This document shows, one piece after another, positions 2,798-57,823 of a stretch of DNA of 57,823 nucleotides. Source of the stretch: Candidatus Nomurabacteria bacterium (GTDB lineage Bacteria; Patescibacteriota; Minisyncoccia; Phycocordibacterales; UBA9973); assembly GCA_003155695.1 (NCBI GenBank), contig PMDZ01000004.1, positions 51,257 through 109,079 on the forward strand. Direction: 5' to 3'. The translations under genes were made by a program, and so were the position numbers. The notes under the pieces were generated by a model, which had not been told where the DNA came from, searched no databases, and saw nothing but the letters and a program-made list of their open reading frames with translations. Position 1 is the first letter of the stretch. Each line of letters starts with the position of its first letter.

Positions 2798-3175
2798 TTA
2801 TTGACCTGCACAAGTAACACCTGTTTGAGCATTAGGAATACAAGGAATCTGGCTTACATCCAATTGTTCCCCTGTAACACCAAAGGTATTCGTTACAACC
2901 TTTATAATTCCCCAGAAAGCAATAATAACAAACAAACCGATAAGACCATTGATAATCATACCTCGCGCATTCTTCTTTTTCTCTTCATCTCCTGACACAG
3001 TGTACTGTATAACTCCCCAAATGAAGTAAACAACAGCAAGAGTTATCAAAACAGGGATGAGGATAGCTAATATCTGATTGATAATAGCTACGACACCAAA
3101 CACAGTTTGTGAGGTTCCTGCCGCAAAAGCGAGCGATGGAGCAAGAACAGCACCTAATGAAATAATCTTCTTCAT
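2798..3175 (-). CDS. small two-helix pilin-like membrane protein, paralog 4
   Basis: Signal peptide MKKIISLGAVLAPSLAFAA. Module VVYFIWGVIQYTVSGDEEKKKNARGMIINGLIGLFVIIAFWG. Confidence 0.7.
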   Translation of the reverse strand: MKKIISLGAVLAPSLAFAAGTSQTVFGVVAIINQILAILIPVLITLAVVYFIWGVIQYTVSGDEEKKKNARGMIINGLIGLFVIIAFWGIIKVVTNTFGVTGEQLDVSQIPCIPNAQTGVTCAGQ

Positions 3176-11514: not shown

Positions 11515-11591
11515 AGTCGCATTACAAGCTCGGTTTGAAGGTTAACCCTTTTTGTCGAAAGTTTAGGAAAACAAAAAGATCTTCAACTGTG

Positions 11592-11611
11592 CCGCGAGAC
11601 GCGGTTTTTTT
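11592..11611 (+). terminator. terminator-like hairpin inside the rpsA leader
   Basis: CCGCG-AGA-CGCGG followed by T7, about 90 nt downstream of the predicted TSS and 43 nt upstream of the rpsA ATG. Confidence 0.5.
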
Positions 11612-11654
11612 AGTACCAAAACATAAATTTATTTATGTTTTAAAAAATATAGAT

Positions 11655-12782
11655 ATGAAAAAAGAAAATCAAGATGTTATAGATAGCATTGCCGAACACG
11701 CAAAAATGGAGCTTTCCAGTGTCGGCAAAATGCTCGATAAAGCTGAGGTTCCCCCACAAGTGGATGCACTTGTAGAAGGCCCGGTAATTTCCATTCAGAA
11801 GTCATCTGTTTACATTGACCTTACTCCATTCGGGACAGGTATAATTTATGGACGAGAATTTATAAATGCCAAGGACATAATCAAGAAAATAAATATCGGT
11901 GATGTTGTTAAGGCAAAAGTAGTTGAAACCGATAACGAAGATGGTTATATTGAATTATCTTTGAAGGAAGCAAAGCAAGCTCTCATTTGGAGTGAAGCCG
12001 AGAAAGCCATTAAGTCAAAAATGACTCTTGAACTCACTATTAAAGAAGCCAACAAAGGTGGACTTATATTGGAGTGGCAAGGCATCCAAGGATTCCTTCC
12101 GGCTTCTCAACTTAAGAGTGAGCACTATCCACGAGTCGAAGATTCTGACAAGGATAAAATATTAAAAGCCCTAAAATTATTAATCGGCAAACGCATAAAC
12201 GTCGTGATGATTTCCGCTCTACCTAAAGAAGGCAAACTAATTTTTTCGGAAAAGGATAATAATCCGGAAGAGAGACGCGAGATTGTCGGCAAATATGCCG
12301 TCGGTGATGAGCTCGAATGTATCGTTGCCGGTATTGTTGACTTCGGTGTCTTTTTAAAGTTGGAAGAAGGTCTTGAAGGGTTAGTTCACATTTCCGAGAT
12401 TGATTGGGGCTTAGTGGAAGACCCACGAACAATGTTCAAGGTTGGCGACAAAGTCAAAGCAAAAATTATTGAAATAAAAGACGGTAAAATTTCTCTCTCA
12501 ATCAAAGCTCTCAAAGAAAATCCATGGAATGAGTTTGAAAACGTTCTTAAGAAAGGAGATATCGTTTCGGGAGTCGTGATTAAATTCAATAAACACGGAG
12601 CTCTTGTCTCTATAAAACAGGGTGTCGCCGGTTTGGTTCACAATTCGGGATTCGGTTCTGAAGAGAAATTAAAGAAGACTTTGGAATTGGGCAAGAAATA
12701 TAATTTCCAAGTGACTTTATTTGAAGCCAAGGACCAAAGAATGACGCTTGTTTACTTGGATGAAACCAAGAAAACCGAATAG
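11655..12782 (+). CDS. rpsA: 30S ribosomal protein S1 (four S1 domains)
   Basis: Repeated S1 motifs (GDVVKAKVVE..., GKRINVVMIS..., GDELECIVAGIVDFGVFLKL, GDIVSGVVIKFNKHGALVSI). Start moved to ATG 11655 because the longer ORF would run through the promoter and terminator hairpin. Confidence 0.85.
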   Translation: MKKENQDVIDSIAEHAKMELSSVGKMLDKAEVPPQVDALVEGPVISIQKSSVYIDLTPFGTGIIYGREFINAKDIIKKINIGDVVKAKVVETDNEDGYIELSLKEAKQALIWSEAEKAIKSKMTLELTIKEANKGGLILEWQGIQGFLPASQLKSEHYPRVEDSDKDKILKALKLLIGKRINVVMISALPKEGKLIFSEKDNNPEERREIVGKYAVGDELECIVAGIVDFGVFLKLEEGLEGLVHISEIDWGLVEDPRTMFKVGDKVKAKIIEIKDGKISLSIKALKENPWNEFENVLKKGDIVSGVVIKFNKHGALVSIKQGVAGLVHNSGFGSEEKLKKTLELGKKYNFQVTLFEAKDQRMTLVYLDETKKTE

Positions 12783-12900
12783 TAATTACTAATTAAAAAT
12801 TACCGATTACCAGTTAAATAGCCCAAACTAACGAAGTTAGTTTGGGCTATTTTTGATTTTGGATTTAATTATTAATTCTTAATTAGTAATTATTAATTAT
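12783..12900. repeat. AT-rich TAATTA-type palindromic element (copy 2 of 3) filling the rpsA/pth intergenic region
   Basis: Left arm GTAATTACTAATTAAAAATTACC. Right arm TTAATTCTTAATTAGTAATTATTAATTAT (contains the reverse complement TTAATTAGTAATTA of the left arm). Confidence 0.5.
12820..12853. terminator. bidirectional intrinsic terminator between convergent rpsA and pth
   Basis: 13-bp stem AGCCCAAACTAAC / GTTAGTTTGGGCT with a GAA loop, then a T-run. Confidence 0.8.
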
Positions 12901-13477
12901 ATAGACTCATGGCTTTTTCTTTGCCTTCGGCCGACACCATTTCAATAATTTCCGAGACTTTTTTTGAAATCTTTTTAATTTCTTTCAACTCATCTTCTTT
13001 GAATTTTCCGAGCAGAAATTTCAAAATTGCCTCCTCTCCTTTTGGCTTTTTCATTTTTCCAGATGGGGCAAGTGGTAATGTGCCAATACGGATTCGCAAG
13101 AATTCGCGGGATTTTACTTTCTTTATGACCGATTCCAAACCATTATGTCCGCCGGACGAACGATTGAAAGAAATTTTCAAGCTTCCGAGTGGCAAATCTA
13201 TATCATCATAAACGACAACTAGATTTTTTAATTTTTTGGGACTATCGATTAATTGCGCTACTGCTACCCCGGAATTATTCATAAACGTTTCCGGCAGAAG
13301 AAAATCAAACTTTTCCCCGTTAATTTCTCCTTTAGCACACAGTGATTTTAATTTCGGGTTACTTTTCCATTCGGAAAAATCATTAGCTTGCGCAATATTT
13401 TCCAATATCATTCGTCCGGTATTATGACGAGAGTATTCATATTCTTTTCCAGGGTTTCCCAATCCAACGATTAACAT
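12893..13477 (-). CDS. pth: peptidyl-tRNA hydrolase
   Basis: MLIVGLGNPGKEYEYSRHNTG..., GGHNGLES motif. Confidence 0.95.
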   Translation of the reverse strand: MLIVGLGNPGKEYEYSRHNTGRMILENIAQANDFSEWKSNPKLKSLCAKGEINGEKFDFLLPETFMNNSGVAVAQLIDSPKKLKNLVVVYDDIDLPLGSLKISFNRSSGGHNGLESVIKKVKSREFLRIRIGTLPLAPSGKMKKPKGEEAILKFLLGKFKEDELKEIKKISKKVSEIIEMVSAEGKEKAMSLYN

Positions 13478-24346: not shown

Positions 24347-24372
24347 TCTACCCATCTGAGACGAAGTGAAAC
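24347..24372 (-). repeat. solitary copy of the tRNA-Asn-3'-end-like repeat (G1 type)
   Basis: CTCTACCCATCTGAGACGAAGTGAAAC aligns with GCTCCCCGTCTGGGACGAAGTGGGAACC of the 35.6-42.6 kb array. Confidence 0.5.
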
Positions 24373-27337: not shown

Positions 27338-27880
27338 TTAAGTTTTGGGACGAAAATACTTTTTGATGAAGATACTCCCCCAGACGATGAGGAGAGACGA
27401 GTAGTTTATTATCATGAACAACATGTTGCTCCAGGCTATGCCGTAAGGAAAGCGGTATGAAGATAACGGGAAAAGAAATGGCGTTGGGAAAAAGGCTAGA
27501 GAGTGCGATGGAATATCGATTAGAATATGAAATGCCCAGCCGAGAAGAACCCAAGGCGGACGTTTTCTGATAGCCCAGACGATTAGGAATATCACGGCAA
27601 AGATTATTAAAGAGTGACTATATTGATAAAGGTCATGAGATAGATTTAATCCTGCGGCAACTTGATTTCTTGTGGTGAAAAATTGAAGTGTTCTTGCTCC
27701 GGTTAAAATAGTCCATAGTGCAATGACGAAAGGAATTGAGAAAGCGAATAAATCCGGGAATATACCCCAAAAGGCTGTCCAAATTAAATTCAATTTAAAT
27801 GGCTTGCCTTTCTTAAGGGCGGCCAGGTTGGCCTTTCTGGCTGCCACTGTCGTCCATAATGTGTGAGCTAAAATATCCAT
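27338..27880 (-). CDS. polytopic membrane protein, possibly DUF457/YdjM-like metal-dependent hydrolase
   Basis: MDILAHTLW... start, several His residues at helix ends, 5-6 TM segments. Weak family assignment. Confidence 0.4.
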   Translation of the reverse strand: MDILAHTLWTTVAARKANLAALKKGKPFKLNLIWTAFWGIFPDLFAFSIPFVIALWTILTGARTLQFFTTRNQVAAGLNLSHDLYQYSHSLIIFAVIFLIVWAIRKRPPWVLLGWAFHILIDIPSHSLAFFPTPFLFPLSSYRFPYGIAWSNMLFMIINYSSLLIVWGSIFIKKYFRPKT

Positions 27881-35620: not shown

Positions 35621-35642
35621 GCTCCACGTCTGGAAGTTGAAC
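35621..35642 (-). repeat. tRNA-Asn-3'-end-like repeat, G1 type (array boundary)
   Basis: GCTCCACGTCTGGAAGTTGAAC, followed by TTTTTTGAATATG and a terminator-like module (35660-35705) that is also found at 37020-37065. Confidence 0.6.
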
Positions 35643-35713
35643 TTTTTTGAATATGAAAATAAAAAAAGACCCTTGCATTTTTTAATGAATGTAGGTATCT
35701 ATTTTATTCTTGT

Positions 35714-35920
35714 CTATTCAAGAAGAATTTCATATATCTTTTTTACTTTACTAAAAATATCCAACTCTTCTCTTGTACTTCTGGCTCTTGAATTTGGAAC
35801 AGTAATCCCTATATCGATTTCAGCTCCAATGTGAAAGATAGTAACTCCTGGTAATGTTTTCAATTTTTCTAACATATTAGTGCTTAAGTTCCCTACATCT
35901 TTTAAAATTATTCCTTTCAT
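35714..35920 (-). CDS. hypothetical 68-aa protein (cassette 9)
   Basis: ORF only. Confidence 0.35.
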   Translation of the reverse strand: MKGIILKDVGNLSTNMLEKLKTLPGVTIFHIGAEIDIGITVPNSRARSTREELDIFSKVKKIYEILLE

Positions 35921-36026
35921 TTTATCTATTTTTGGTTTATACTATTTTTTCCTCACATTACTTCTTAACAATAATTTTGTCAATTATAACTCAAAAACAA
36001 CCTTACATAATAAGATTAAATTCATT

Positions 36027-36057
36027 TGTTCCGAACTTGGAACGATACTCGAAAGAG
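36027..36057 (-). repeat. tRNA-Asn-3'-end-like repeat, G2 type
   Basis: TGTTCCGAACTTGGAACGATACTCGAAAGAG. Ends 2 nt before the stop of the 36059-36787 ORF. Confidence 0.6.
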
Positions 36058-36058
36058 T

Positions 36059-36787
36059 TTAATTTTTGGATTCGAGGATAACCATTGATTGAGGATTGAA
36101 GCCTTTGACGACCAACCAGATGCCCAACGAAAACTCAAATAGTGCGACTGGAATTGAGGATAATCCTGCAAGAGGGGCATGTTGACCGATTAAACCGAAC
36201 ATTACCGCTAGATAACCAATAAGTAGTATTGGTGCCCCAAAGATTCCAATTAATGAAAGACCTCTCGGTACCAACTGCGACTTATATAAAAGAAATCCCA
36301 GTAACAAGTCACATATGGCTGGCATGAGGCTTTGCCCGAGGAGGAAGATGCGGTCATAAAGGGCGACAAGCGCATGACTTGCGACCAACGCATTTGGTCC
36401 AACTCCGGCTTGTCGCAATGTCACAATTGACAATAGAAACGCCACACCGACGAAGATAGTACTGGATTCCAAAATTCTGGCGGCGATGAGGCCTAATGCG
36501 AGTGTTTCATTTTGTTTTTTGAGAACACGAAATAACACAACAGCGGTAGCGATACCTGCAAGGGCCACGATAATCTCCAGGATACCGCCGATGATTGCGG
36601 AAGTGTCCGGCCCGGCACCGAGAATGTAGTTAGCACTTTTTACTTGACCGTAAATAGCAAGAGTCGGAACCGAAACAAATGTGAGCAGGTAAAGTATGCC
36701 AGCCGTTAATGATATTTTTCTCGACGATAGTAAGACTTCCTTATTTATTTCGACGTTCTGTTTGTTTAAGTTTGTTTTTTCTTCCAT
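36059..36787 (-). CDS. DUF4386-like membrane protein (cassette 8)
   Basis: LTAGILYLLTFVSVPTLAIYG... and 6-TM pattern. Confidence 0.5.
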   Translation of the reverse strand: MEEKTNLNKQNVEINKEVLLSSRKISLTAGILYLLTFVSVPTLAIYGQVKSANYILGAGPDTSAIIGGILEIIVALAGIATAVVLFRVLKKQNETLALGLIAARILESSTIFVGVAFLLSIVTLRQAGVGPNALVASHALVALYDRIFLLGQSLMPAICDLLLGFLLYKSQLVPRGLSLIGIFGAPILLIGYLAVMFGLIGQHAPLAGLSSIPVALFEFSLGIWLVVKGFNPQSMVILESKN

Positions 36788-36940
36788 ATTATTATCGTTG
36801 GTTAAATTATTATAATTTCGAACTTTATATTATTGTGTTTTTTATGCCGACATTTTTAATATACCCTCAATAGATTAATATTGCATTAATAATATTTTTT
36901 TCATCAAAAGCCCTCATGAAAAGACCCAAGATTTTTACTA

Positions 36941-37001
36941 CTCCCCGTCTGGGGCGAAACCTGCCCGCCCTCGCGTACTCGGGAGCAGGCGGGTGGGAAC
37001 C
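36941..37001 (-). repeat. tRNA-Asn-3'-end-like repeat, G1 type with a GC-rich internal insertion
   Basis: CTCCCCGTCTGGGGCG...[CCTGCCCGCCCTCGCGTACTCGGGAGCAGGCGGG]...TGGGAACC, then TTATTGAATGAGG. Confidence 0.6.
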
Positions 37002-37078
37002 TTATTGAATGAGGGAAAATAAAAAAGACCCTTGCATTGTTTGATGTAGGTATCTATTTTGTTTTTGTTATCACATTT

Positions 37079-37405
37079 TTACCCTCCAACTTCGGTTAAG
37101 TTTCGAGTTGCAACTTTACATTCTTTACCAAGAATTCCACAAAATTCTTCGGCACCAATCTCTATTAAGTCGAAGCAGAAGAGTTGGCCATCTTTATTGT
37201 GCGGTATCTCAACAACAAAGAGTTGCTCAAAAATACTCGCCGTAATGAAATTAAAGAAAAGTATTTCCGTTTCTCTTTTTGTTTCTGTAAAAGGAAAAAC
37301 AAAAACGTTATATCCTTTTCTTTTGTATTTTTCAAGCATCGCTATGAGTGCTGTCGTATTTAGTGATTTATCAACCACTAAAACATTAAATATTTTTCCT
37401 TCCAT
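37079..37405 (-). CDS. hypothetical 108-aa protein (cassette 7)
   Basis: ORF. Its upstream region is homologous to that of 42673-42972. Confidence 0.4.
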   Translation of the reverse strand: MEGKIFNVLVVDKSLNTTALIAMLEKYKRKGYNVFVFPFTETKRETEILFFNFITASIFEQLFVVEIPHNKDGQLFCFDLIEIGAEEFCGILGKECKVATRNLTEVGG

Positions 37406-37524
37406 CTTTATAAAGATTAAGTAAAAGCTTTTCCTTTACTCTACTCCTTTTCACAAAAATTATCAATTTGATTTGAATTAATGAAAACAAAAAACCACCA
37501 TATTAAAATTGAGTAAATAATTTA

Positions 37525-37547
37525 CTCCCCGTCTGGAAGAAGGTTAA
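37525..37547 (-). repeat. tRNA-Asn-3'-end-like repeat, G1 type
   Basis: CTCCCCGTCTGGAAGAAGGTTAA. Abuts the stop of the 37549-38538 ORF. Confidence 0.6.
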
Positions 37548-37548
37548 A

Positions 37549-38538
37549 CTATTTAAACAAGATTTTTCCTTTAAATGGATTGGGCAACCCAGAATTTATA
37601 CCTGCTTCCGCATCGCTCAACCCCGCATAGAGTGTCACAGTACCATCATCGCCAAATACCAAACTACTAGGAAAGATGATATCTGCTAATTCTGTATTTT
37701 TCTCTTCCCCCGCAGGAAAATTCTCTCTTGTCGCTATAATTTCAATCGGTGATGAAAGATGCGTTTCGGGATCATACACAAATGCCATAGCGTAGTAATG
37801 TTTGATGTCTTGTTCGTCGATATACGCAATATGTCCAACAACTCCAATTTTTCCATCTTCCAATAGATACAATTCGTTTACACCACCCCATTCTCCGGAA
37901 GCAAATTGATTTTCAATAATTTTCGCATTGAGAAGATTCTTCTCGTTCAAATCTTCGGGACTCTCTATTTCAATATAACCTATTTTACCATTTCCATTTT
38001 CTCCACCTTGTGGTCGAGTAAAAACACCAATATGACCATTTGCGAGAGACACAAGTCGGATATCTTTCATTCCGTCCGGACCGACGGCGAATTTTTCAAG
38101 CGATGAAAGATCGTGCCCGCGATAAAAAACCGTTCGGTAACCGACTTCGTCTTTATTGTCCTTTCCAGGACTGGGGTACACCTCAACGCCACCAAAAATT
38201 GTTTCATCTCCAATTTGTTTTAAAAAACCATCTTCCAACTTAAAAGTAGGTGCACCATCAATTGGAGACCACACGCCATTCTTCTCTTCAAAGAACATAA
38301 CCTGCGAATCTGCCAATTTTTCTCGTTTTTCCACGCGCCCAGCAATAACTGTTCTATTGTCAATAAAAAAGGGAGCTGTAATATTATATACATCTTGTCC
38401 ATCAACACCTGAAAACTGTAACTTCTCCCCCATAGGAAGAGCTTCTTTTGATTTAAATCTCTCTAGAAGTTCGGTACAACGTGGCGGATAAGGTCTTTTT
38501 TCTTTCTCTATATCTATATTATTCATTTCCATTCCCAT
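37549..38538 (-). CDS. beta-propeller-like protein resembling DUF1861 (cassette 6)
   Basis: LQFSGVDGQDVYNITAPF...IAGRVEKRE...VMFFEE..GVW resembles DUF1861 (glycosidase-like fold). From memory only. Confidence 0.4.
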   Translation of the reverse strand: MGMEMNNIDIEKEKRPYPPRCTELLERFKSKEALPMGEKLQFSGVDGQDVYNITAPFFIDNRTVIAGRVEKREKLADSQVMFFEEKNGVWSPIDGAPTFKLEDGFLKQIGDETIFGGVEVYPSPGKDNKDEVGYRTVFYRGHDLSSLEKFAVGPDGMKDIRLVSLANGHIGVFTRPQGGENGNGKIGYIEIESPEDLNEKNLLNAKIIENQFASGEWGGVNELYLLEDGKIGVVGHIAYIDEQDIKHYYAMAFVYDPETHLSSPIEIIATRENFPAGEEKNTELADIIFPSSLVFGDDGTVTLYAGLSDAEAGINSGLPNPFKGKILFK

Positions 38539-38576
38539 AAGATAATTTTACCACTCTAGGGGATTAATACATAATC

Positions 38577-38608
38577 TTGCTCCGAACTTGGGATGATGTT
38601 TGAATGAG
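38577..38608 (-). repeat. tRNA-Asn-3'-end-like repeat, G2 type
   Basis: TTGCTCCGAACTTGGGATGATGTTTGAATGAG. 5 nt from the stop of the 38614-39627 ORF. Confidence 0.65.
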
Positions 38609-38613
38609 TATAA

Positions 38614-39627
38614 TTAAGGACAGACAAATTCACAATTAGGACCAGAACGTCCAACATAAGAACCATCAGGACATTGTTTCGCCTCCATGGTACAAGCGAC
38701 TGGTTCTTTTAATCCTGTACATCTCCAATTTATTTCAGCTGTCTTAGTTTTTTCATCTACCACACAAGCTGGATTGCATCCTTCTTTTGTTGCATTTAAA
38801 TTAGCGTCATACCACCAAGTTTTAGAGTTTTCATTATAAATACCACTAGCCAAAACTTCACCACCTTTAATACAAGACTTTTCAGCAATTACTCGAGCTT
38901 CAACTTCTGATAGAAGACTGTCTATCAAATTAATTTTGACTTCATTATTATTTCTCACATAACTAAAACTTTTACTCCCTTGTATGTGACCGTCTTCATA
39001 GGTCATCGTTCCAGTTTTCATAGAAGGATTTACATTTATTGAAGTCGCATACCACGAACCACCTAAAACGGGTTTTTCTGGCACAATAGTTTTAATATTT
39101 TCACGAATATATTTTTCAACAATAATTTTGTCGTCCAATGATTCACAGTCTGTTTGTGACATTTGAAATCCTGGAGTTAATTTTGTGGTATCTTTATACA
39201 TATAAACTCCATCCCCTCTATCTACCATTTCACCAAAAAACACAACTGCACTTCCTTCACCAAATTCAATTTTTAACTGTTCTGTCGCATGCATTCCTTC
39301 TCCAAATGTATCCCACAAAACATCTGCAACACGTCCGCTAATCTTGGGATCCATAGGACCAACAGTTCCTGTAAAAGTCCCCACCAGGCTATCTGTTTTT
39401 GCTGGGAGGTTTTGATATTCACCAGTTACTTTATTACCCAAGATGCTCATTTTAAGCCAAGCACGATCGGGAAAACCATTTGAAGTATCTTTTGAATATT
39501 GATAACACATGACAATAGGTTCTTTAGGTATTATAACAGCCTCTTTCTCTTTGTTTTTTATAATAAAAAAAACAACTCCAACCACTACTACAACAAACAA
39601 AACAATATAAATTAGTATTTTTTTCAT
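38614..39627 (-). CDS. membrane-anchored Cys-rich surface protein (modules X-B-A) (cassette 5)
   Basis: N-terminal TM. Shares module B (LLSEVEARVIAEKSCIKGG...NPACVVDEKTKTAEINWRCTGL) and module A (CTMEAKQCPDGSYVGRSGPNCEF) with 39756-40478. Confidence 0.55.
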   Translation of the reverse strand: MKKILIYIVLFVVVVVGVVFFIIKNKEKEAVIIPKEPIVMCYQYSKDTSNGFPDRAWLKMSILGNKVTGEYQNLPAKTDSLVGTFTGTVGPMDPKISGRVADVLWDTFGEGMHATEQLKIEFGEGSAVVFFGEMVDRGDGVYMYKDTTKLTPGFQMSQTDCESLDDKIIVEKYIRENIKTIVPEKPVLGGSWYATSINVNPSMKTGTMTYEDGHIQGSKSFSYVRNNNEVKINLIDSLLSEVEARVIAEKSCIKGGEVLASGIYNENSKTWWYDANLNATKEGCNPACVVDEKTKTAEINWRCTGLKEPVACTMEAKQCPDGSYVGRSGPNCEFVCP

Positions 39628-39701
39628 AATCTAAATATACCACAGGTTCGAATTTCTACTAAGGTAGGTAAAATAACCATTATATTATATGGCTTTAAAT
39701 T

Positions 39702-39735
39702 TTGCTCCAAACTTGGGGTGATGTTCGAAAAAGTA
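39702..39735 (-). repeat. tRNA-Asn-3'-end-like repeat, G2 type
   Basis: TTGCTCCAAACTTGGGGTGATGTTCGAAAAAGTA. Confidence 0.6.
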
Positions 39736-39755
39736 CTGGGGAGAGGAGAAAATGT

Positions 39756-40478
39756 TTATCTAATTCCTGAATCACAAGAGAGATTAACTTCAATTACCTT
39801 TGATGGTTCTATGGTTATGTTTTTCGTCTCACATCTCGGCATTACAGAGCCACCTACTGGCTGAAGTGCATATTCACCTGGCGGAAGCATTATTTTATAT
39901 TTACCATCTTTGTCACTTTCTATTGTTGCGAAAGGTGAACTTTTTGGGCTTCCAATAGAGATTACTTGAATGCTAGTAGTATAAGACCTATCTGCACAGT
40001 TTGGATCAGGAGGTAAGCGTTCCACTGGACAAGTCGGCCCAATTGTTACCACTCCTTCAACACCGGAATCAAGAGGAAGGAGACCGGTACACCGCCAGTT
40101 TATTTCGGCGGTTTTTGTCTCTTCGCTCACCACACAAGCCGGATTACATCCTTCACGTGTTGCATTTAAATTTGCATCAAACCACCAGGTTTTTGAATTA
40201 TTATTATAAATGCCACCAGCTAAAGCTTCACCTCCTTTAATACATAATTTTTCTGCAATGACACGAGCTTCAGCTTCAGAGAGTAAACTATTTATTTTCG
40301 GACATAGAGCAAATTCACAATTTGGTCCCGTGCGTCCTACAGAAGAACCATCGGGACAAAGTTTGGCTTCTTCGGTACAAGCTAAGGGGCCGTTATTATT
40401 TATAAAATTAAATTTGTATATTCCAAAGCCCAAAATCAATAAAACCAACACAATTATAATTATTAAAATTTTTTTCAT
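39756..40478 (-). CDS. membrane-anchored Cys-rich surface protein (modules A-B-Ig-like) (cassette 4)
   Basis: N-terminal TM, then module A, module B, and a C-terminal beta-sandwich-like region (DKDGKYKIMLPPGEYAL). Confidence 0.55.
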   Translation of the reverse strand: MKKILIIIIVLVLLILGFGIYKFNFINNNGPLACTEEAKLCPDGSSVGRTGPNCEFALCPKINSLLSEAEARVIAEKLCIKGGEALAGGIYNNNSKTWWFDANLNATREGCNPACVVSEETKTAEINWRCTGLLPLDSGVEGVVTIGPTCPVERLPPDPNCADRSYTTSIQVISIGSPKSSPFATIESDKDGKYKIMLPPGEYALQPVGGSVMPRCETKNITIEPSKVIEVNLSCDSGIR

Positions 40479-40495
40479 ATTTATATTATATCACA

Positions 40496-41164
40496 TCAGT
40501 TATCTCTTCCATCTCCAGTTAGTGGTATTTCCTTTCCTAAATATTTTGGTTCTCTATATAAAACCAAATTGATTACTGCTTTTATATTTGCAAACATTTC
40601 TCGTATATAATTACGAAATTTATAATGACCATTATCTGCATTCAAACCATATGCATTCATGCCTAATACCCTAGCAATAAAAACCGACCTTGGTAGATGA
40701 AATGATTGAGTAACTATTGTTATAGAATCTGCTAGAAAAATATCTCTAGCTCTATACATACTACTATATGTATCAAAACCAGCATGATCTAAAAAGATGT
40801 TTTTATCAGGAATACCTTTTCCTAATAAATATATTCTAACAGGATTTACTTCATTATAAGCCACAGTGCTATTGTCTCCCGTTACTAAAATTTTTTCAAC
40901 TTTTTTTGCATTATATAATTTTATAGCCGAATCAACTCTATCTATCAATATAGGTGAAAGATTTCCATTCGTTAATATTGAAGCTCCCAAAATAACTGCA
41001 ACTTCAGTATGTGGAATTTCTTTAACATCGTTCCAAATATATGCTTTCGTTTTTAATTTTATTATTATGGAAATAAAAATAATAAAAAGTATTATTAAAA
41101 TAACTAAATAAATTACTATTTTGATAATTTTTTTTATTATTTTCAGAATAAAATTAATTTTCAC
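40496..41164 (-). CDS. DUF218 (YdcF/SanA-like) membrane-anchored protein
   Basis: VAVILGASILTNG...DRVDSAIKLYNAKKVEKILVTGDN...VTQSFHLPRS. Start placed at GTG 41164; the longer ORF to 41254 overlaps the upstream gene. Confidence 0.65.
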   Translation of the reverse strand: MKINFILKIIKKIIKIVIYLVILIILFIIFISIIIKLKTKAYIWNDVKEIPHTEVAVILGASILTNGNLSPILIDRVDSAIKLYNAKKVEKILVTGDNSTVAYNEVNPVRIYLLGKGIPDKNIFLDHAGFDTYSSMYRARDIFLADSITIVTQSFHLPRSVFIARVLGMNAYGLNADNGHYKFRNYIREMFANIKAVINLVLYREPKYLGKEIPLTGDGRDN

Positions 41165-41217
41165 ATAAAAAAACAGCAAAGTTGAACGGGGGAAGATATT
41201 ACACCGATGGAAACTTT

Positions 41218-41499
41218 TTATATTAACTCTTCTCCTTTTGCGCTTAAAACACAAATACCTTTTTCAGAACTTTCAAGATATCCTTTCTTTTTTAAATAAA
41301 AGCGTGCCCATGAAACTCTATCGCTCAACTTAGTTTGTGTCCCTTTATGAATCTTATTTCTTTCATCCTCGGTTAAATTAAGCATATCGGCCACCACACG
41401 CTCAACATCCTTAACTGAGGCTCTTCCTCCTAAATCATATATGGCTTTTAACGTTACACTAGTTAGATTTTTATACAAAGGTAATTTCATACTCATCAT
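41218..41499 (-). CDS. stand-alone Mrr_N-like winged-helix protein
   Basis: LKAIYDLGGRASVKDVERVVADMLNLTEDERNKIHKGTQTKLSDRVSWARFYLKKKGYLE. Start trimmed to the Met at 41499. Confidence 0.5.
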   Translation of the reverse strand: MMSMKLPLYKNLTSVTLKAIYDLGGRASVKDVERVVADMLNLTEDERNKIHKGTQTKLSDRVSWARFYLKKKGYLESSEKGICVLSAKGEELI

Positions 41500-41562
41500 T
41501 ATACTATAAATTAAGCCAACTGAAAAACGTTTTAAGTTTTTCAATTTTTGGGTTCTATACTT

Positions 41563-41591
41563 GGCTCCCCTTCTGGGACGAAGTGGGAACC
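41563..41591 (-). repeat. tRNA-Asn-3'-end-like repeat, G1 type
   Basis: GGCTCCCCTTCTGGGACGAAGTGGGAACC, preceded by TCTATACT. Nearly identical to 42224-42252. Confidence 0.65.
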
Positions 41592-41629
41592 ATATTAAAT
41601 AGTTTAAACTGTATGATATAATATAAAAC

Positions 41630-42112
41630 ATGGAAAAGATAAATATTTACATAGATGGAAATAATTTATACAGGTCAGCTAAAGAACTAGGATTTGAAAT
41701 TGATTACAAAAAATTTAGAGGATGGCTTAGGCAGAAATATAATGCTAGTAATATTTATCTATTTATTGGACTAGTTCCTGAAAGAGTAAAATTCTACGAG
41801 TATTTACAGAGTTGCGGCTATATTTTGGTTTTTAAACAAACAGTATCTGTTGGGGAAAAAATAAAAGGAAATTGTGATGCGGAACTAGTGTTAAAAACTG
41901 TATCTGATTTTTACACCAAATCTTTTTCAAAATGTATTTTAATCACAGGTGATGGGGATTTTGGTTGTCTGGTAGAATTTTTAAAAGAAAATAAGGTTAT
42001 AAATATTGTGATATCACCCGATGAAAACAAATGCTCTATTTTACTAAGAAATAAAAATATAGAAATCACTTTTTTGAATGAGCTTTATCATAAGTTTTCA
42101 AATAGAATATAA
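41630..42112 (+). CDS. NYN (LabA/DUF88-like) domain putative RNase (cassette 3)
   Basis: INIYIDGNNLYRSAKELG...ILITGDGDFGCLVEFL is a typical NYN/PIN-like acidic motif arrangement. Confidence 0.7.
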   Translation: MEKINIYIDGNNLYRSAKELGFEIDYKKFRGWLRQKYNASNIYLFIGLVPERVKFYEYLQSCGYILVFKQTVSVGEKIKGNCDAELVLKTVSDFYTKSFSKCILITGDGDFGCLVEFLKENKVINIVISPDENKCSILLRNKNIEITFLNELYHKFSNRI

Positions 42113-42223
42113 AAAGAAAAAGCCCCCAATATAGACGAATCTATATAAGGGTCTTCTTCATAGTGATACAGGTATTATATCATAATTATCCTAAAATATG
42201 CAAGTACTGAGTCTATACTAACT

Positions 42224-42252
42224 GGCTCCCCGTCTGGGACGAAGTGGGAACC
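42224..42252 (-). repeat. tRNA-Asn-3'-end-like repeat, G1 type
   Basis: GGCTCCCCGTCTGGGACGAAGTGGGAACC. Hairpin-capable: GGCTCCC/GGGAACC outer stem and CGTC/GACG inner stem. Confidence 0.65.
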
Positions 42253-42274
42253 TTTTTGATGGAATCTATAAAAG

Positions 42275-42559
42275 ATGTATAATTGGAATATGACAACTAA
42301 AAAACATATTACAACAGAAGAAGCAAAACGGACGGGTAAGCGATTAGGGATTAAATGGGATAAATTTGATGTTGCTCAGTTTAAAATTGGTATGGAAGTA
42401 GAATTGGAACATGGAACTATTAGAAAACTAACAAATATTAGTAATGACAATTTATTAATGACAGGTAAGATTGCACTGGCACATCTAAATGAAATTCCCG
42501 ACTACTTCACTCGTTTATTGAAGATGGAAAAAGAAGCTAAAAAACAGATCCCAAAATAA
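42275..42559 (+). CDS. DUF5661-like small protein (cassette 2)
   Basis: MEVELEHGT...GKIALAHLNEIPDYFTRL resembles the DUF5661 signature, which is often phage-associated. Confidence 0.45.
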   Translation: MYNWNMTTKKHITTEEAKRTGKRLGIKWDKFDVAQFKIGMEVELEHGTIRKLTNISNDNLLMTGKIALAHLNEIPDYFTRLLKMEKEAKKQIPK

Positions 42560-42560
42560 T

Positions 42561-42593
42561 TTGCTCCGTACTTGGAATGGTGTTCGAATGAGT
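42561..42593 (-). repeat. tRNA-Asn-3'-end-like repeat, G2 type
   Basis: TTGCTCCGTACTTGGAATGGTGTTCGAATGAGT. Read on the minus strand: CATTCGAACACCATTCCAAGTACGGAGCAAAT, versus tRNA-Asn GGTTCGATCCCTACCCACGGAGCAAAAT. Confidence 0.65.
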
Positions 42594-42672
42594 ATTGTGG
42601 AGAAATAAAAAAGACCTGCTAGTATTTAGACAGATCTTTTTTTGATTTAACCAACACTGTCCTTTATCTTAC

Positions 42673-42972
42673 TTATATATACCTCAACCTTTTTATTCTT
42701 AGTTTACTATAAGATAAATGGCATTCTTTAATAGGACTATCTCCTACTTTTTTATGTATTGTGAAATCAAAATTTTTGTATGATTTGTTTTTAAAAATTT
42801 TACAAACAAAATCATAGTCACATTTCCATAATTTTCTTTTCACCCCATCAACACATTCGTTTACTTCGATATCATCTTCAGAAAGCATTCCCAACAAGGA
42901 CTGATACGTATAATCGTCGCCTGCAACGATATACCATTGTATCTTTCTAATTGTTTTACTATTTTTTCCCAT
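42673..42972 (-). CDS. hypothetical 99-aa protein (cassette 1)
   Basis: ORF. Its promoter-like region at 42973-43050 is homologous to 37406-37470. Confidence 0.4.
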   Translation of the reverse strand: MGKNSKTIRKIQWYIVAGDDYTYQSLLGMLSEDDIEVNECVDGVKRKLWKCDYDFVCKIFKNKSYKNFDFTIHKKVGDSPIKECHLSYSKLRIKRLRYI

Positions 42973-43098
42973 TTTGTATACGTTTTAAAGAAGTTGAATA
43001 TTTTTCTTTACCTTACTACTTTTAAGAAATATTATCAATTAGACTTAGGTTTTAGAAAAGTTATCAAAAAGCCAATTTTTTTATTGTTTTTAATTTTG

Positions 43099-43170
43099 CT
43101 CCGTGGGTAGGGATCGAACCTACGACCAATCGCTTAACAGGCGACCGCTCTACCGCTGAGCTACCACGGA
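43099..43170 (-). tRNA. tRNA-Asn (anticodon GUU)
   Basis: Reverse complement: TCCGTGG-TA-GCTC-AGCGGTA-GAGC-G-GTCGC-CTGTTAA-GCGAT-TGGTC-GTAGG-TTCGATC-CCTAC-CCACGGA-G. 72 nt, CCA not encoded. Confidence 0.9.
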
Positions 43171-43197
43171 ATGTTTATTAAATTGTGTTGAACTTAT

Positions 43198-43347
43198 TTC
43201 GTGGTAAAGCTTTTATATAGCGGTCGCCTTACAGACGACCCTCTTACAGAGGCTGTCCACTCATTGGATTTTATTCCATAAAATCTCAATGAGTCTTGCG
43301 AACTGGGGTTTACCCAGTTCTCACTCCACCGCAAAGCTACCACGGAA
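43198..43347 (-). ncRNA. tRNA-Asn-derived, highly structured 150-nt element (function unknown; possible tRNA-like RNA or disrupted tRNA paralog)
   Basis: The 5' 19 nt nearly match the tRNA-Asn 5' end. Long closing stem (TTCCGTGGTAGCTTT / AAAGCTTTACCACGAA) plus four hairpins: 8 bp GAACTGGG/CCCAGTTC, 15 bp CTCATTG-GATTTTAT/ATAAAATC-CAATGAG, CCTCT/AGAGG, and GGTCGTC/GGCGACC. Confidence 0.4.
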
Positions 43348-57106: not shown

Positions 57107-57823
57107 AATTGAATTATTCCACGAACAGCTTCCGCTACCCGTGCCTTGTTACGACTTATTCCCTGTTACCGAGCTTACTGTAGGCCCTCCGTATGGAGAG
57201 ATTTCGAGCACTCCCGGCTCCCTTGAATTGACGGGCGGTGAGTACAAGACTTGAGAACGTATTCACCGCGGTATATATGACCCGCGATTACTAGTAATTC
57301 CAACTTCATGGGGTCGAGTTGCAGCCCCCAATCCGAACTGGCGCAATTTTTATTAGGATTCGCTCAGGGTTACCCCGTCGCTGCCCGTTGTAATTGCGAT
57401 TGTATTATGTGTGTAGCCCAAGGTATCAAGGGTCATGCTGACCTGGCGTCATCCTCCCCTTCCTCCCCGACCAAAAAATACAATTAAGAATTAATAATTA
57501 ATAATTAATAATTTGAAATACATTGCTGAATTTCTCATTCTTAATTCTTAATTCTTAATTAATAATTACATCCTTGGGTCGGGGCAGTCTCGTGTGACAC
57601 TTATAACACACAACGAGGGTTGCGTTCGTTACCCCACTTAAGGGAACAATTCAAACCACGAACTGACGACGGCCATGCAACACCTGTCAACTAGTCTTGC
57701 GAGGGCTCTAGTTTCTTAGAGCTTTCACGTTGATTTCTAACCTTGGTAAGGTTCTTCGTTTATCATCGAATTAAACCACATAATCCACTACTTGTGCAAG
57801 TCCCCGTCTATTCCTTTGAGTTT
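57107..57823 (-). rRNA. rrs: 16S rRNA, 3' portion (E. coli ~907 to 3' end), runs off the window
   Basis: Reverse complement contains AAACTCAAAGGAATAGACGGGGAC, GCATGGCCGTCGTCAG, AACGAACGCAACCC, GAGGAAGGGGAGGATGACGCCAGGTCA, GTACTCACCGCCCGTCA and AAGTCGTAACAAGG. Divergent at universal primer sites, as in CPR. Confidence 0.92.
57473..57576 (-). repeat. 104-nt A+T-rich insertion in 16S helix 40 (AT-rich TAATTA-type element, copy 3 of 3)
   Basis: Flanked by the helix-40 stem CCCCGACC (57465-57472) / GGTCGGGG (57577-57584). E. coli has only CCAGTGATAAACTGG at this position. Confidence 0.75.

Follow-up and report, generated by a model that had tools for sequence, protein, structure and literature searches.

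We analyzed a 57.8-kb stretch of DNA (the window) with a G+C content of 36%, which belongs to a Paceibacteria-type genome of the candidate phyla radiation (CPR); its closest PurH homologue is from a Candidatus Nomurabacteria metagenome-assembled genome (MAG). Paceibacteria are a CPR group, mostly uncultured, and we know of few mobile elements in them. The feature under study is an array of short repeats stacked against a tRNA-Asn(GTT) gene, with small gene units, here called cassettes, lying between the repeats. There are ten copies of the repeat (22-61 nt): nine are in the array and co-oriented with the tRNA, and the tenth is degenerate and solitary. The nine copies partition positions 35621-43098 (~7.5 kb) into nine units of 337-1861 bp, eight of which carry one gene each, while the unit between copies 6 and 7 carries three. 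An earlier note, made from the letters of this stretch, had picked out these copies and the small, mostly single-gene units, and both were confirmed. Comparison with sequences from related loci suggests that the repeats are in all likelihood attachment (att) junctions of a large serine recombinase (LSR), that is, scars of elements inserted at the 3' end of tRNA-Asn.

Two subtypes of the repeat, G1 and G2, align without gaps and are identical at 17 of 27 positions. The copies are listed below, from the tRNA outward, with the putative LSR tail that each encodes; block B is a conserved part of the longer junctions described further on.

43098-43170, minus strand: tRNA-Asn(GTT), anchor of the array (ARAGORN and Rfam)
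42561-42608, plus strand: copy 9 (G2), putative relic LSR tail LLRTWNGVRMSIVEK-stop, read as the attR-type junction that separates the 99-aa and DUF5661 units
42224-42252, plus strand: copy 8 (G1), putative relic tail LPVWDEVGTFLMESIKDV-stop, then degenerate block B-like sequence
41563-41591, plus strand: copy 7 (G1), putative relic tail LPFWDEVGTILNS...
39702-39735, plus strand: copy 6 (G2), putative relic tail LLQTWGDVRKS...
38577-38608, plus strand: copy 5 (G2), putative relic tail LLRTWDDV-stop, in which a CGA codon has become TGA
37525-37547, plus strand: copy 4 (G1, short and degenerate), putative relic tail LPVWKKVKLF
36941-37001, plus strand: copy 3 (G1), holding a 34-nt GC-rich hairpin insertion at 36957-36990
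36027-36057, plus strand: copy 2 (G2, diverged), putative relic tail LFRTWNDTRKS (profile E = 0.44)
35621-35642, plus strand: copy 1 (G1, short and degenerate), the most distal junction
24347-24372, plus strand: copy 10 (G1-like, degenerate, solitary), reading LPI-stop-DEVKLFK (E = 0.013) and probably an old relic

Scans of the window located copies in the array only, plus the one degenerate relic, and the cores recur beyond chance. With at most 2 mismatches, the G1 core (CTCCCCGTCTGG) has five same-strand matches in the array and six in total, the sixth being an unrelated match on the opposite strand at 27380; 1.28 matches are expected, and none of 100 shuffles gets to six. The G2 core (at most 3 mismatches) has four array matches, the best four with 0-1 mismatch, and G2 was also recovered as family D7 by a de novo repeat search of the window. 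Beyond copy 1 lies a conserved flank with DUF2127 and DinB genes; at a related locus (L164) a G2 copy adjoins a DinB homologue.

Distribution of the repeat and its link to tRNA-Asn

A scan with a degenerate G2 pattern yielded 61 loci in species-representative genomes, nearly all of them Paceibacterota or Patescibacteria MAGs, and 57 further loci in metagenomes. Copies were counted across loci with a profile built from them, which finds 261 copies in 119 loci and no locus of mixed orientation. Four to seven copies inside 8 kb are common (for example, L140, L187, L181, L191, and L246). The G1 pattern, scanned over genome representatives, gave mostly chance matches in GC-rich genomes and one true copy (L021). 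No G2 copy was found on IMG/VR viral contigs.

Over 114 G2-bearing loci, ARAGORN identified 24 tRNA genes, of which 19 are tRNA-Asn. At these 19 loci and in the window alike, copies are found solely downstream of the tRNA 3' end and always share the orientation of the tRNA. The association with tRNA-Asn that the earlier note had drawn from one array therefore holds when a profile is scanned over related MAGs and metagenomes, and the window array is one case of a general feature of Paceibacteria. A dispersed REP- or terminator-like intergenic repeat is not supported, as copies in the window keep to the array save for one relic and those elsewhere are tied to tRNA-Asn, in scanned loci that are contigs rather than whole genomes. 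The strong evidence for this link is positional and does not lie in sequence similarity: against dinucleotide shuffles, the likeness to the tRNA-Asn 3' end is significant for the G2 consensus (p = 0.002), spans p = 0.007-0.14 for single G2 copies, and is not significant for G1 alone (p = 0.4-0.7). Thus, the resemblance to the tRNA 3' end proposed earlier stands for the G2 consensus, and fails for G1 and for some single G2 copies.

The inter-element units (n = 99) have a median length of 885 bp, and 63 of them contain exactly one open reading frame (ORF). Most cassette ORFs (116 of 134) run along the tRNA direction, and 18 (13%) are opposed; together with the lack of any mixed-orientation locus, this agrees with the earlier view that the orientation of the repeat is tied to the chromosome and not to the genes. 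Clustering places the 134 ORFs in 123 families, including NUDIX hydrolases, small kinases, NYN proteins, methyltransferases, and peptidases. The cargo is hyperdiverse, and these arrays are a common hypervariable gene-cassette island in Paceibacteria. ORF clustering and Pfam comparison of the 134 cassette ORFs revealed no recombinase inside the arrays among the 25 most-matched families listed.

The repeat as the 3' end of a serine recombinase gene

Translated on the plus strand, the repeat reads as the 3'-terminal coding sequence of an LSR and not as a decayed tRNA fragment, which is how the earlier note had seen it. The G2 consensus gives L-R/Q-T-W-D-D-V-R-M-S-I and G1 gives L-P-V-W-D-E-V-G-T, and the commonest right flank of G2 (...GTATTTTGGAGAAATAA) extends the frame as -L-E-K-stop. 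All ten window copies follow a single frame, L-x-x-W-(D/N/G/K)-(D/E/G/K)-V, save three degenerate positions (L for V in copy 1, T for V in copy 2, and a stop replacing W in copy 10). A motif scan of all stop-to-stop ORFs uncovered an intact 534-aa LSR at L256 with a C-terminus (...SLLQTWDDVRIEILLNK-stop) encoded by a G2 copy, and a second LSR (P0027, at L260) ends ...LSIWDDVRQAIIEENS over G2-like sequence. At four loci (L155, L186, L220, and L236), truncated LSR C-terminal remnants stand immediately before G2. Variation among 196 distinct G2 copies follows codon position (2.2%, 6.3%, and 9.6% at the first, second, and third positions, respectively; permutation p = 0.023), and synonymous differences are enriched (104 of 270 vs. 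26% expected at random).

The LSR family comprises 1670 homologues at E <= 1e-20, with source names that point to Paceibacterota and Patescibacteria. The best 120 of these 1670 (P0001 to P0120; 515-606 aa, 55-72% identity) have Resolvase, Recombinase, and Zn_ribbon_recom domains according to precomputed Pfam annotation. Counted over the same 120 proteins, the C-termini are ...LL(R/P/G)x-stop in 75, ...LLPRQ(G/D)SNLRPIA in 30, and of other kinds in 13; two (P0001 and P0027) have G2-coded tails. Both main classes (105 of 120) are translated antisense tRNA-Asn; for example, GCTCCGTGGGTAG gives L-R-G-stop. The family was seen at related loci, and the earlier observation that the window itself has no integrase holds: the 47 window ORFs include no recombinase family when compared with Pfam, and tblastn with seven LSR queries gave no LSR match in the window. 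We consider G1 and G2 very likely to be the P arms of attP for two subfamilies of this LSR family.

Other, more distant serine recombinases are encoded at L165 (4978-6567), L141, L182, and L248. Those at L165 and L141 are near other tRNA genes, and the L165 ORF runs into an antisense tRNA-Ala. Among the serine recombinases of this lineage, targeting of tRNA genes may thus be more widespread.

At the DNA level, the 3' end of the LSR gene overlaps tRNA-Asn at L262 and L263, where the tRNA is called by ARAGORN, and at L258. The L258 tRNA-Asn (~11545-11930) was missed by ARAGORN, and its anticodon loop is interrupted by ~310 nt of inserted sequence, which may be an intron. LSR-specific sequence gives way to tRNA or G2 sequence at GCTC(C), which is GGAGC on the tRNA strand. 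A putative unsplit attP containing the repeat occurs inside the integrase gene in the LSR ORFs of L256 and L260, and a putative attL, with the integrase gene joined to tRNA-Asn at the core, occurs at L258, L262, and L263. The single clear case of an apparently integrated element is L263, with a putative attL at the tRNA and a putative attR at a G2 junction 9.9 kb away (1588-1700), where block B, a hairpin, the G2 tail LQTWDEVQMSILEEK-stop, and a terminator-like hairpin follow one another; the intervening DNA encodes the LSR, a restriction-modification pair, and other cargo. No far-end G2 junction was found within 10 kb at L262. L248 was considered as a second complete element and rejected, as its recombinase is distinct, more distant, and does not abut the tRNA.

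With good probability, attB would take its B arm from the tRNA-Asn 3' end (GGTTCGATCCCTACCCACGGAGC), GGAGC being the core. In serine integrases, the motif bound by the zinc-ribbon domain is 5 bp nearer the centre in attB than in attP (Rutherford et al., PMC3783163). The TTCGAxC motif behaves in this way, starting 21 nt before GGAGC in G2 (TTCGAAC-N14) and 16 nt before it in the tRNA (TTCGATC-N9). This 5-bp shift explains the resemblance of the repeat to a gapped copy of the tRNA end, which it is not. The two have only the GGAGC core and the shifted motif in common, and their alignment needs 5 nt of gaps. A true tRNA 3' copy, as left by the tyrosine integrases of Islander or tycheposon type, was rejected on these grounds and on the non-significant score of G1. 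A crossover in the TTCGAAC of block B and G2 (a pseudo-T-loop) was also rejected, as it would destroy the tRNA and conflicts with the LSR/tRNA junctions at GCTCC, although it does fit the break between L139 and L158 described below.

Read on the tRNA strand, a full junction begins with the terminator-like hairpin of the upstream gene, continues with AAAUACUCA, UUCGAACAUCAUCCCAAGUUCGGAGC (G2), and AAAAUU, and passes through an AT-rich hairpin with a U-run and CGGAGGUUAGUAGAAGUUCGAACC (block B) to a promoter-like sequence, after which comes the next gene. Promoter-like and terminator-like sequences belong to the cassettes themselves; these labels were read from alignments by eye, with no prediction tool. 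The span from G2 to block B is constant (87-90 nt in all 30 clean copies), and the sequence of the hairpin is variable. In the window, copy 6 has the complete hairpin and block B on its left (39640-39701), making a full junction of ~88 nt. The same module of hairpin and block B also follows genuine tRNA-Asn in 6 of 11 loci and, as it is found after both the tRNA and most G2 copies, G2 takes the place of the tRNA 3' end. Block B (GTAGAAGTTCGAACC) resembles an inverted T-arm and could be the B' arm. The array junctions would accordingly have a P|B'-like composition, that of attR, and the tRNA followed by hairpin and block B would have that of attB. A -10-like box is often present after G2, yet by inspection nothing is encoded downstream on the plus strand, and a plus-strand promoter was rejected.

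The 34-nt GC-rich hairpin in copy 3 (CCCGCCTGCTCCCGAGTACRCGAGGGCGGGCAGG, 36957-36990) recurs in identical form in a junction at L152 (~3075-3110), in an unrelated genome, which suggests a tiny mobile hairpin.

Proposed mechanism and rival explanations

In the mechanism that we propose, a free element would carry attP within the 3' end of its LSR gene, with the last ~15 codons as the P arm. Crossover at or beside GCTCC, at a dinucleotide that we infer, would fuse the main part of the LSR gene with the tRNA 3' end, forming attL. The severed tail, the last cargo gene of the element, and its terminator-like hairpin would be left at the far end as attR. Every G1 and G2 copy in the window would then be an attR-type junction that points the same way as the tRNA. 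The earlier proposal of DNA-level att-like sites and serial site-specific integration at tRNA-Asn gains support from these comparisons, which also provide a candidate enzyme family, the LSR found at related loci.

Canonical serine integrases recombine attP with attB only, or attL with attR when a directionality factor is present. By this strict rule, a second insertion at the tRNA needs a restored attB. Two routes of accumulation can be envisaged. In the preferred one, the LSR element at the head of the array, bounded by attL, would excise with any downstream attR, carrying cassettes away with it or leaving some behind if internal attR sites are present, and each excision would restore tRNA|B', a usable attB. 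The arrangement at L256 fits this route: cassettes and a short-form junction lie upstream of the intact LSR, whose G2 tail forms a P|P' junction. In the other, docked elements would decay by deletion, as the LSR remnants show. Both routes probably operate.

Several comparisons bear on the movement of cassettes. L139 and L158 are 99.5% identical over 881 bp, then diverge inside G2 and are unrelated beyond it. A cassette duplicated within one contig (L152, L171) is 93% identical over 610 bp by BLAST, and the likeness ends right after GGAGCC. The element that immediately precedes the NYN cassette is the true tRNA at L160, G1 in the window, and G2 at L140 and L158. L144 has the right flank of the window and L164 its DinB flank, and neither has a cassette in common with the window. 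These breakpoints, the shifting context of the NYN cassette, and the differing cassettes point to unit-level exchange. The boundary-associated variation anticipated by the earlier note is seen between loci, as at L139 and L158, and not within the population of the window. A synteny comparison based on PurH was abandoned, as the closest genomes are available only as 3-4 kb contigs.

We suggest, as a possibility somewhat short of an even chance, that cassettes of Paceibacteria are exchanged as units through alternative attR sites by an LSR-driven process that is integron-like in function. A docked LSR element would then pick up single-gene cassettes, carry them to other cells, and drop them, its target being renewed at each excision, a scenario that we put forward just as tentatively.

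A number of observations weigh against the reading of the repeats as LSR att junctions. The symmetric P' motif TTTCG(A/T)G at about -23 is clear only at L262 and L263, and not at L256, L258, or L260. Block B, if it is the B' arm, is displaced by an insertion of ~45 nt, the hairpin. Serial insertion calls for a regenerated attB, a step that we infer, and no directionality factor was identified. The 57.8-kb window has no LSR; the mobilising enzyme would be encoded outside it, and its activity in the genome of the window is presumed. The upstream identity of the L152/L171 duplicates starts ~95 nt after the upstream GGAGC and not at the core. No polymorphism was found within the population of the window, since all contigs with an identical NYN or 193-aa flank protein have the same gene order. 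Finally, the absence of G2 from IMG/VR indicates that the vehicle is not a recognised phage.

The best-surviving alternative, which we regard as rather unlikely, is pure decay, in which full-size LSR elements integrated and were mostly deleted, and the cassettes were never mobile as units. The truncated LSR remnants beside G2 at L155, L186, L220, and L236, and the degenerate or stop-containing G2 copies, are what it predicts, and the tycheposon islands of Prochlorococcus likewise combine att repeats with fragmented integrases (10.1101/2020.12.28.424599). However, random deletion leaves the uniform junction of 87-90 nt unexplained, and pure decay accounts neither for the hairpin and block B module after each G2 and after the tRNA, nor for identity breaks exactly at GGAGC, nor for a tRNA that stays a usable target after each event.

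Homologous recombination, in which cassettes pass between strains after DNA uptake, with the junctions serving only as portable homology along with terminator and promoter functions and no site-specific enzyme acting today, appears improbable. A conserved junction of ~88 nt might suffice for RecA-dependent exchange, and the off-core upstream break at L152/L171 agrees with it. On the other hand, the NYN cassette at L160 abuts the true tRNA at GAGCCA, where only ~6 nt are in common with G1 or G2, and the strict anchoring, the polarity, and the LSR-tail origin of the repeat are left unexplained.

An integron-like platform, the other hypothesis of the earlier note, would have an IntI-type tyrosine recombinase capturing promoterless cassettes through folded attC-like sites derived from the tRNA 3' half. 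The arrays recall such a platform in that a conserved repeat separates small single-gene units that are hyperdiverse and mostly share one orientation, and a 7-bp stem can be drawn in both G1 and G2, with two compensatory differences between the subtypes. Within G2, however, the stem is not maintained, its mismatches being uncompensated (A.C at 13/30; A.G and A.C at 14/29; C.A at 16/27), and RNAalifold on 30 full junctions gives only a weak central hairpin of -1.9 kcal/mol. No IntI-type or tyrosine-recombinase motif occurs in the 119 loci, nor in the window ORFs by Pfam. The sequence of the repeat is highly conserved, and by inspection the GTTRRRY and RYYYAAC boxes are unmatched. The cassettes have promoter-like and terminator-like sequences of their own, and LSR-tail coding variation accounts for the differences between G1 and G2. 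This explanation has very little to recommend it.

Hardly any weight can be given to an RNA-level element (a tRNA-like 3' UTR, processing signal, or small RNA transcribed in tRNA orientation). In its favour, the repeat is, on the tRNA strand, frequently placed between a stop codon and a terminator-like hairpin, and G-U pairs are possible on that strand only. Against it, the repeat often sits between two terminator-like hairpins, 13% of the genes beside it have the opposite strand, copies keep to the tRNA-Asn array, the identity with the LSR coding tail and the codon-periodic variation are foreign to it, and Rfam (gathering and E-value scans of the window and L021) has no family for it. An RNA hairpin as such was rejected, as covariation within G2 is absent or contrary and the consensus fold weak; an uncompensated stem and a weak fold make any explanation by RNA structure a poor one.

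Related systems, cargo, and neighbouring features

The array would thus work in the manner of a serine-integrase integrative element; as an island it resembles the tycheposon islands, and its likeness to integrons or CALINs appears superficial. As in LSR systems of the phiC31, Bxb1, A118/LI, and SPbeta type, the recombinase has Resolvase, Recombinase, and Zn ribbon domains and its gene lies beside the att site, the sites are short and simple with a 5-bp motif offset in attB (PMC3783163), and the hybrid junctions have the expected composition. Unlike in those systems, attP would lie inside the 3' codons of the integrase itself, so that integration swaps the C-terminal tail of the protein, and insertion is directed to a tRNA gene at its 3' end. 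The tandem pile-up of attR-type junctions, with single-gene units that lack an integrase, also differs and is not predicted by a strict attP x attB rule. In Prochlorococcus, repeated integration of tycheposons at one tRNA pushes older elements deeper into islands that hold att repeats, fragmented integrases, and diverse cargo in a streamlined genome (10.1101/2020.12.28.424599). Tycheposons mostly rely on tyrosine recombinases and a partial-tRNA repeat, whereas here a serine recombinase and an integrase-tail repeat are found, and the units are far smaller (median 885 bp).

Chromosomal integrons and CALINs are likewise long arrays in which a conserved repeat separates small and hyperdiverse cassettes, most of them co-oriented; they include reverse-oriented toxin-antitoxin-like cassettes, and often have no integrase nearby. 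The present arrays differ from them in the class of enzyme, the lack of attC-type folded sites, the promoter-like sequences of the cassettes, and a tRNA anchor in place of attI. SSV-type archaeal integrases, which are tyrosine recombinases, have attP inside the int reading frame and target tRNA genes, and their integration splits int into two large parts. The att site within the integrase frame and the tRNA target are shared with the LSR described here, in which, by contrast, just the last ~15 codons would be exchanged; the LSR probably stays functional after the exchange of its tail.

In the literature on integrons, hypervariable tRNA-Asn loci, or serine recombinases in Patescibacteria, we found no description of such a system, in line with the earlier suggestion that it is undescribed for CPR bacteria. 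The new aspects are an attP in the terminal codons of the integrase, a target at the tRNA 3' end, very small units that each bring promoter-like and terminator-like sequences, and the host lineage. The proposal offers a concrete mechanism for accessory-gene turnover in Paceibacteria and, if unit exchange via attR is true, a general route of gene flow in a tiny-genome lineage. It would also provide, from sequence alone, a natural attP/attB pair (G2 with the LSR 3' end, and the tRNA-Asn 3' end) for more than 1600 serine integrases. Serine integrases need no host factors, and the pair could therefore be a starting point for Patescibacteria genetic tools and the family a source of integrases for genome engineering. 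For annotation, it would account for a recurrent assembly break point and a recurrent repeat in Paceibacteria MAGs, and the variable C-termini of the LSR could serve as a read-out of integration, the tail showing whether an element is free or docked.

The cargo units of the window are listed below, from the tRNA outward. The Pfam assignments given in the earlier note (DUF4386, DUF1861, DUF218, Mrr_N, NYN, and DUF5661) proved right.

42673-42972, minus strand: unit adjoining the tRNA, 99-aa protein without Pfam match, then a terminator-like hairpin at 42600-42650
42275-42559, plus strand: DUF5661 unit, on the strand opposite to the tRNA
42108-42180, minus strand: putative small transcription unit convergent with NYN, with a -10-like TATAAT box and a terminator-like hairpin shared with NYN
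41630-42112, plus strand: NYN-domain unit, on the strand opposite to the tRNA
39756-41494, minus strand: three-gene unit (Cys-rich 240-aa protein, DUF218, Mrr_N)
38614-39627, minus strand: Cys-rich 337-aa unit, paralogue of 39756-40478
37549-38538, minus strand: DUF1861 unit (Pfam)
37079-37405, minus strand: 108-aa protein unit without Pfam match
36059-36787, minus strand: DUF4386 unit (Pfam)
35714-35920, minus strand: 68-aa protein unit without Pfam match

NYN is the commonest cassette family across loci, and its orientation is constant. The -10-like box of the small unit convergent with it reads ATTATA on the plus strand at 42174-42179. The pair of NYN and a convergent unit of ~55 nt with a strong promoter-like sequence is kept at L140, L158, L160, and L188, and by its layout looks like a toxin-antitoxin or addiction-type module. 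The two paralogous Cys-rich cassettes (38614-39627 and 39756-40478) are neighbours with signal-peptide-like N-termini and segments that are 79% identical.

Directly 5' of tRNA-Asn lies a structured segment of ~155 nt (43190-43345, minus strand), which is kept at L144. It has a tRNA-Asn-like start (TCCGTGGTAGCT), an Asn-like anticodon arm with a GUA loop, and a terminal stem of ~12 bp. Rfam gave no match for the segment; a pseudo-tRNA is one possible identity, and a small RNA not yet described is another. At L021 (2125-2296) and L188 (~1490-1660), ~100 nt are enclosed by two inverted copies of the tRNA-Asn 3' end, one of which a hairpin interrupts, and the same pair is found at L151, L169, and L248 (~1890-1935). 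It always comes just after a G2 copy and terminator, and at L021 an inverted G1 copy is next. This pair, too, is without an Rfam match and may represent either a tRNA-like RNA or att sites in a palindromic layout.

At L196, L262, and L263, tRNA-Asn adjoins a block with the HPF and Fmt genes (and HisS at L196 and L263), and L177 and L180 have a similar flank. In the window, the HPF/Fmt block (11.7-18.4 kb) is inverted and 25 kb from tRNA-Asn (43.1 kb), and this displacement implies an inversion with one end at tRNA-Asn. AT-rich repeats of TAATTA type occur at 98-202 (by tRNA-Glu), at 12782-12909 (between the S1 and Pth genes), and at 57480-57569 (in a 16S rRNA model match), the last of which may be an insertion in the rRNA gene.

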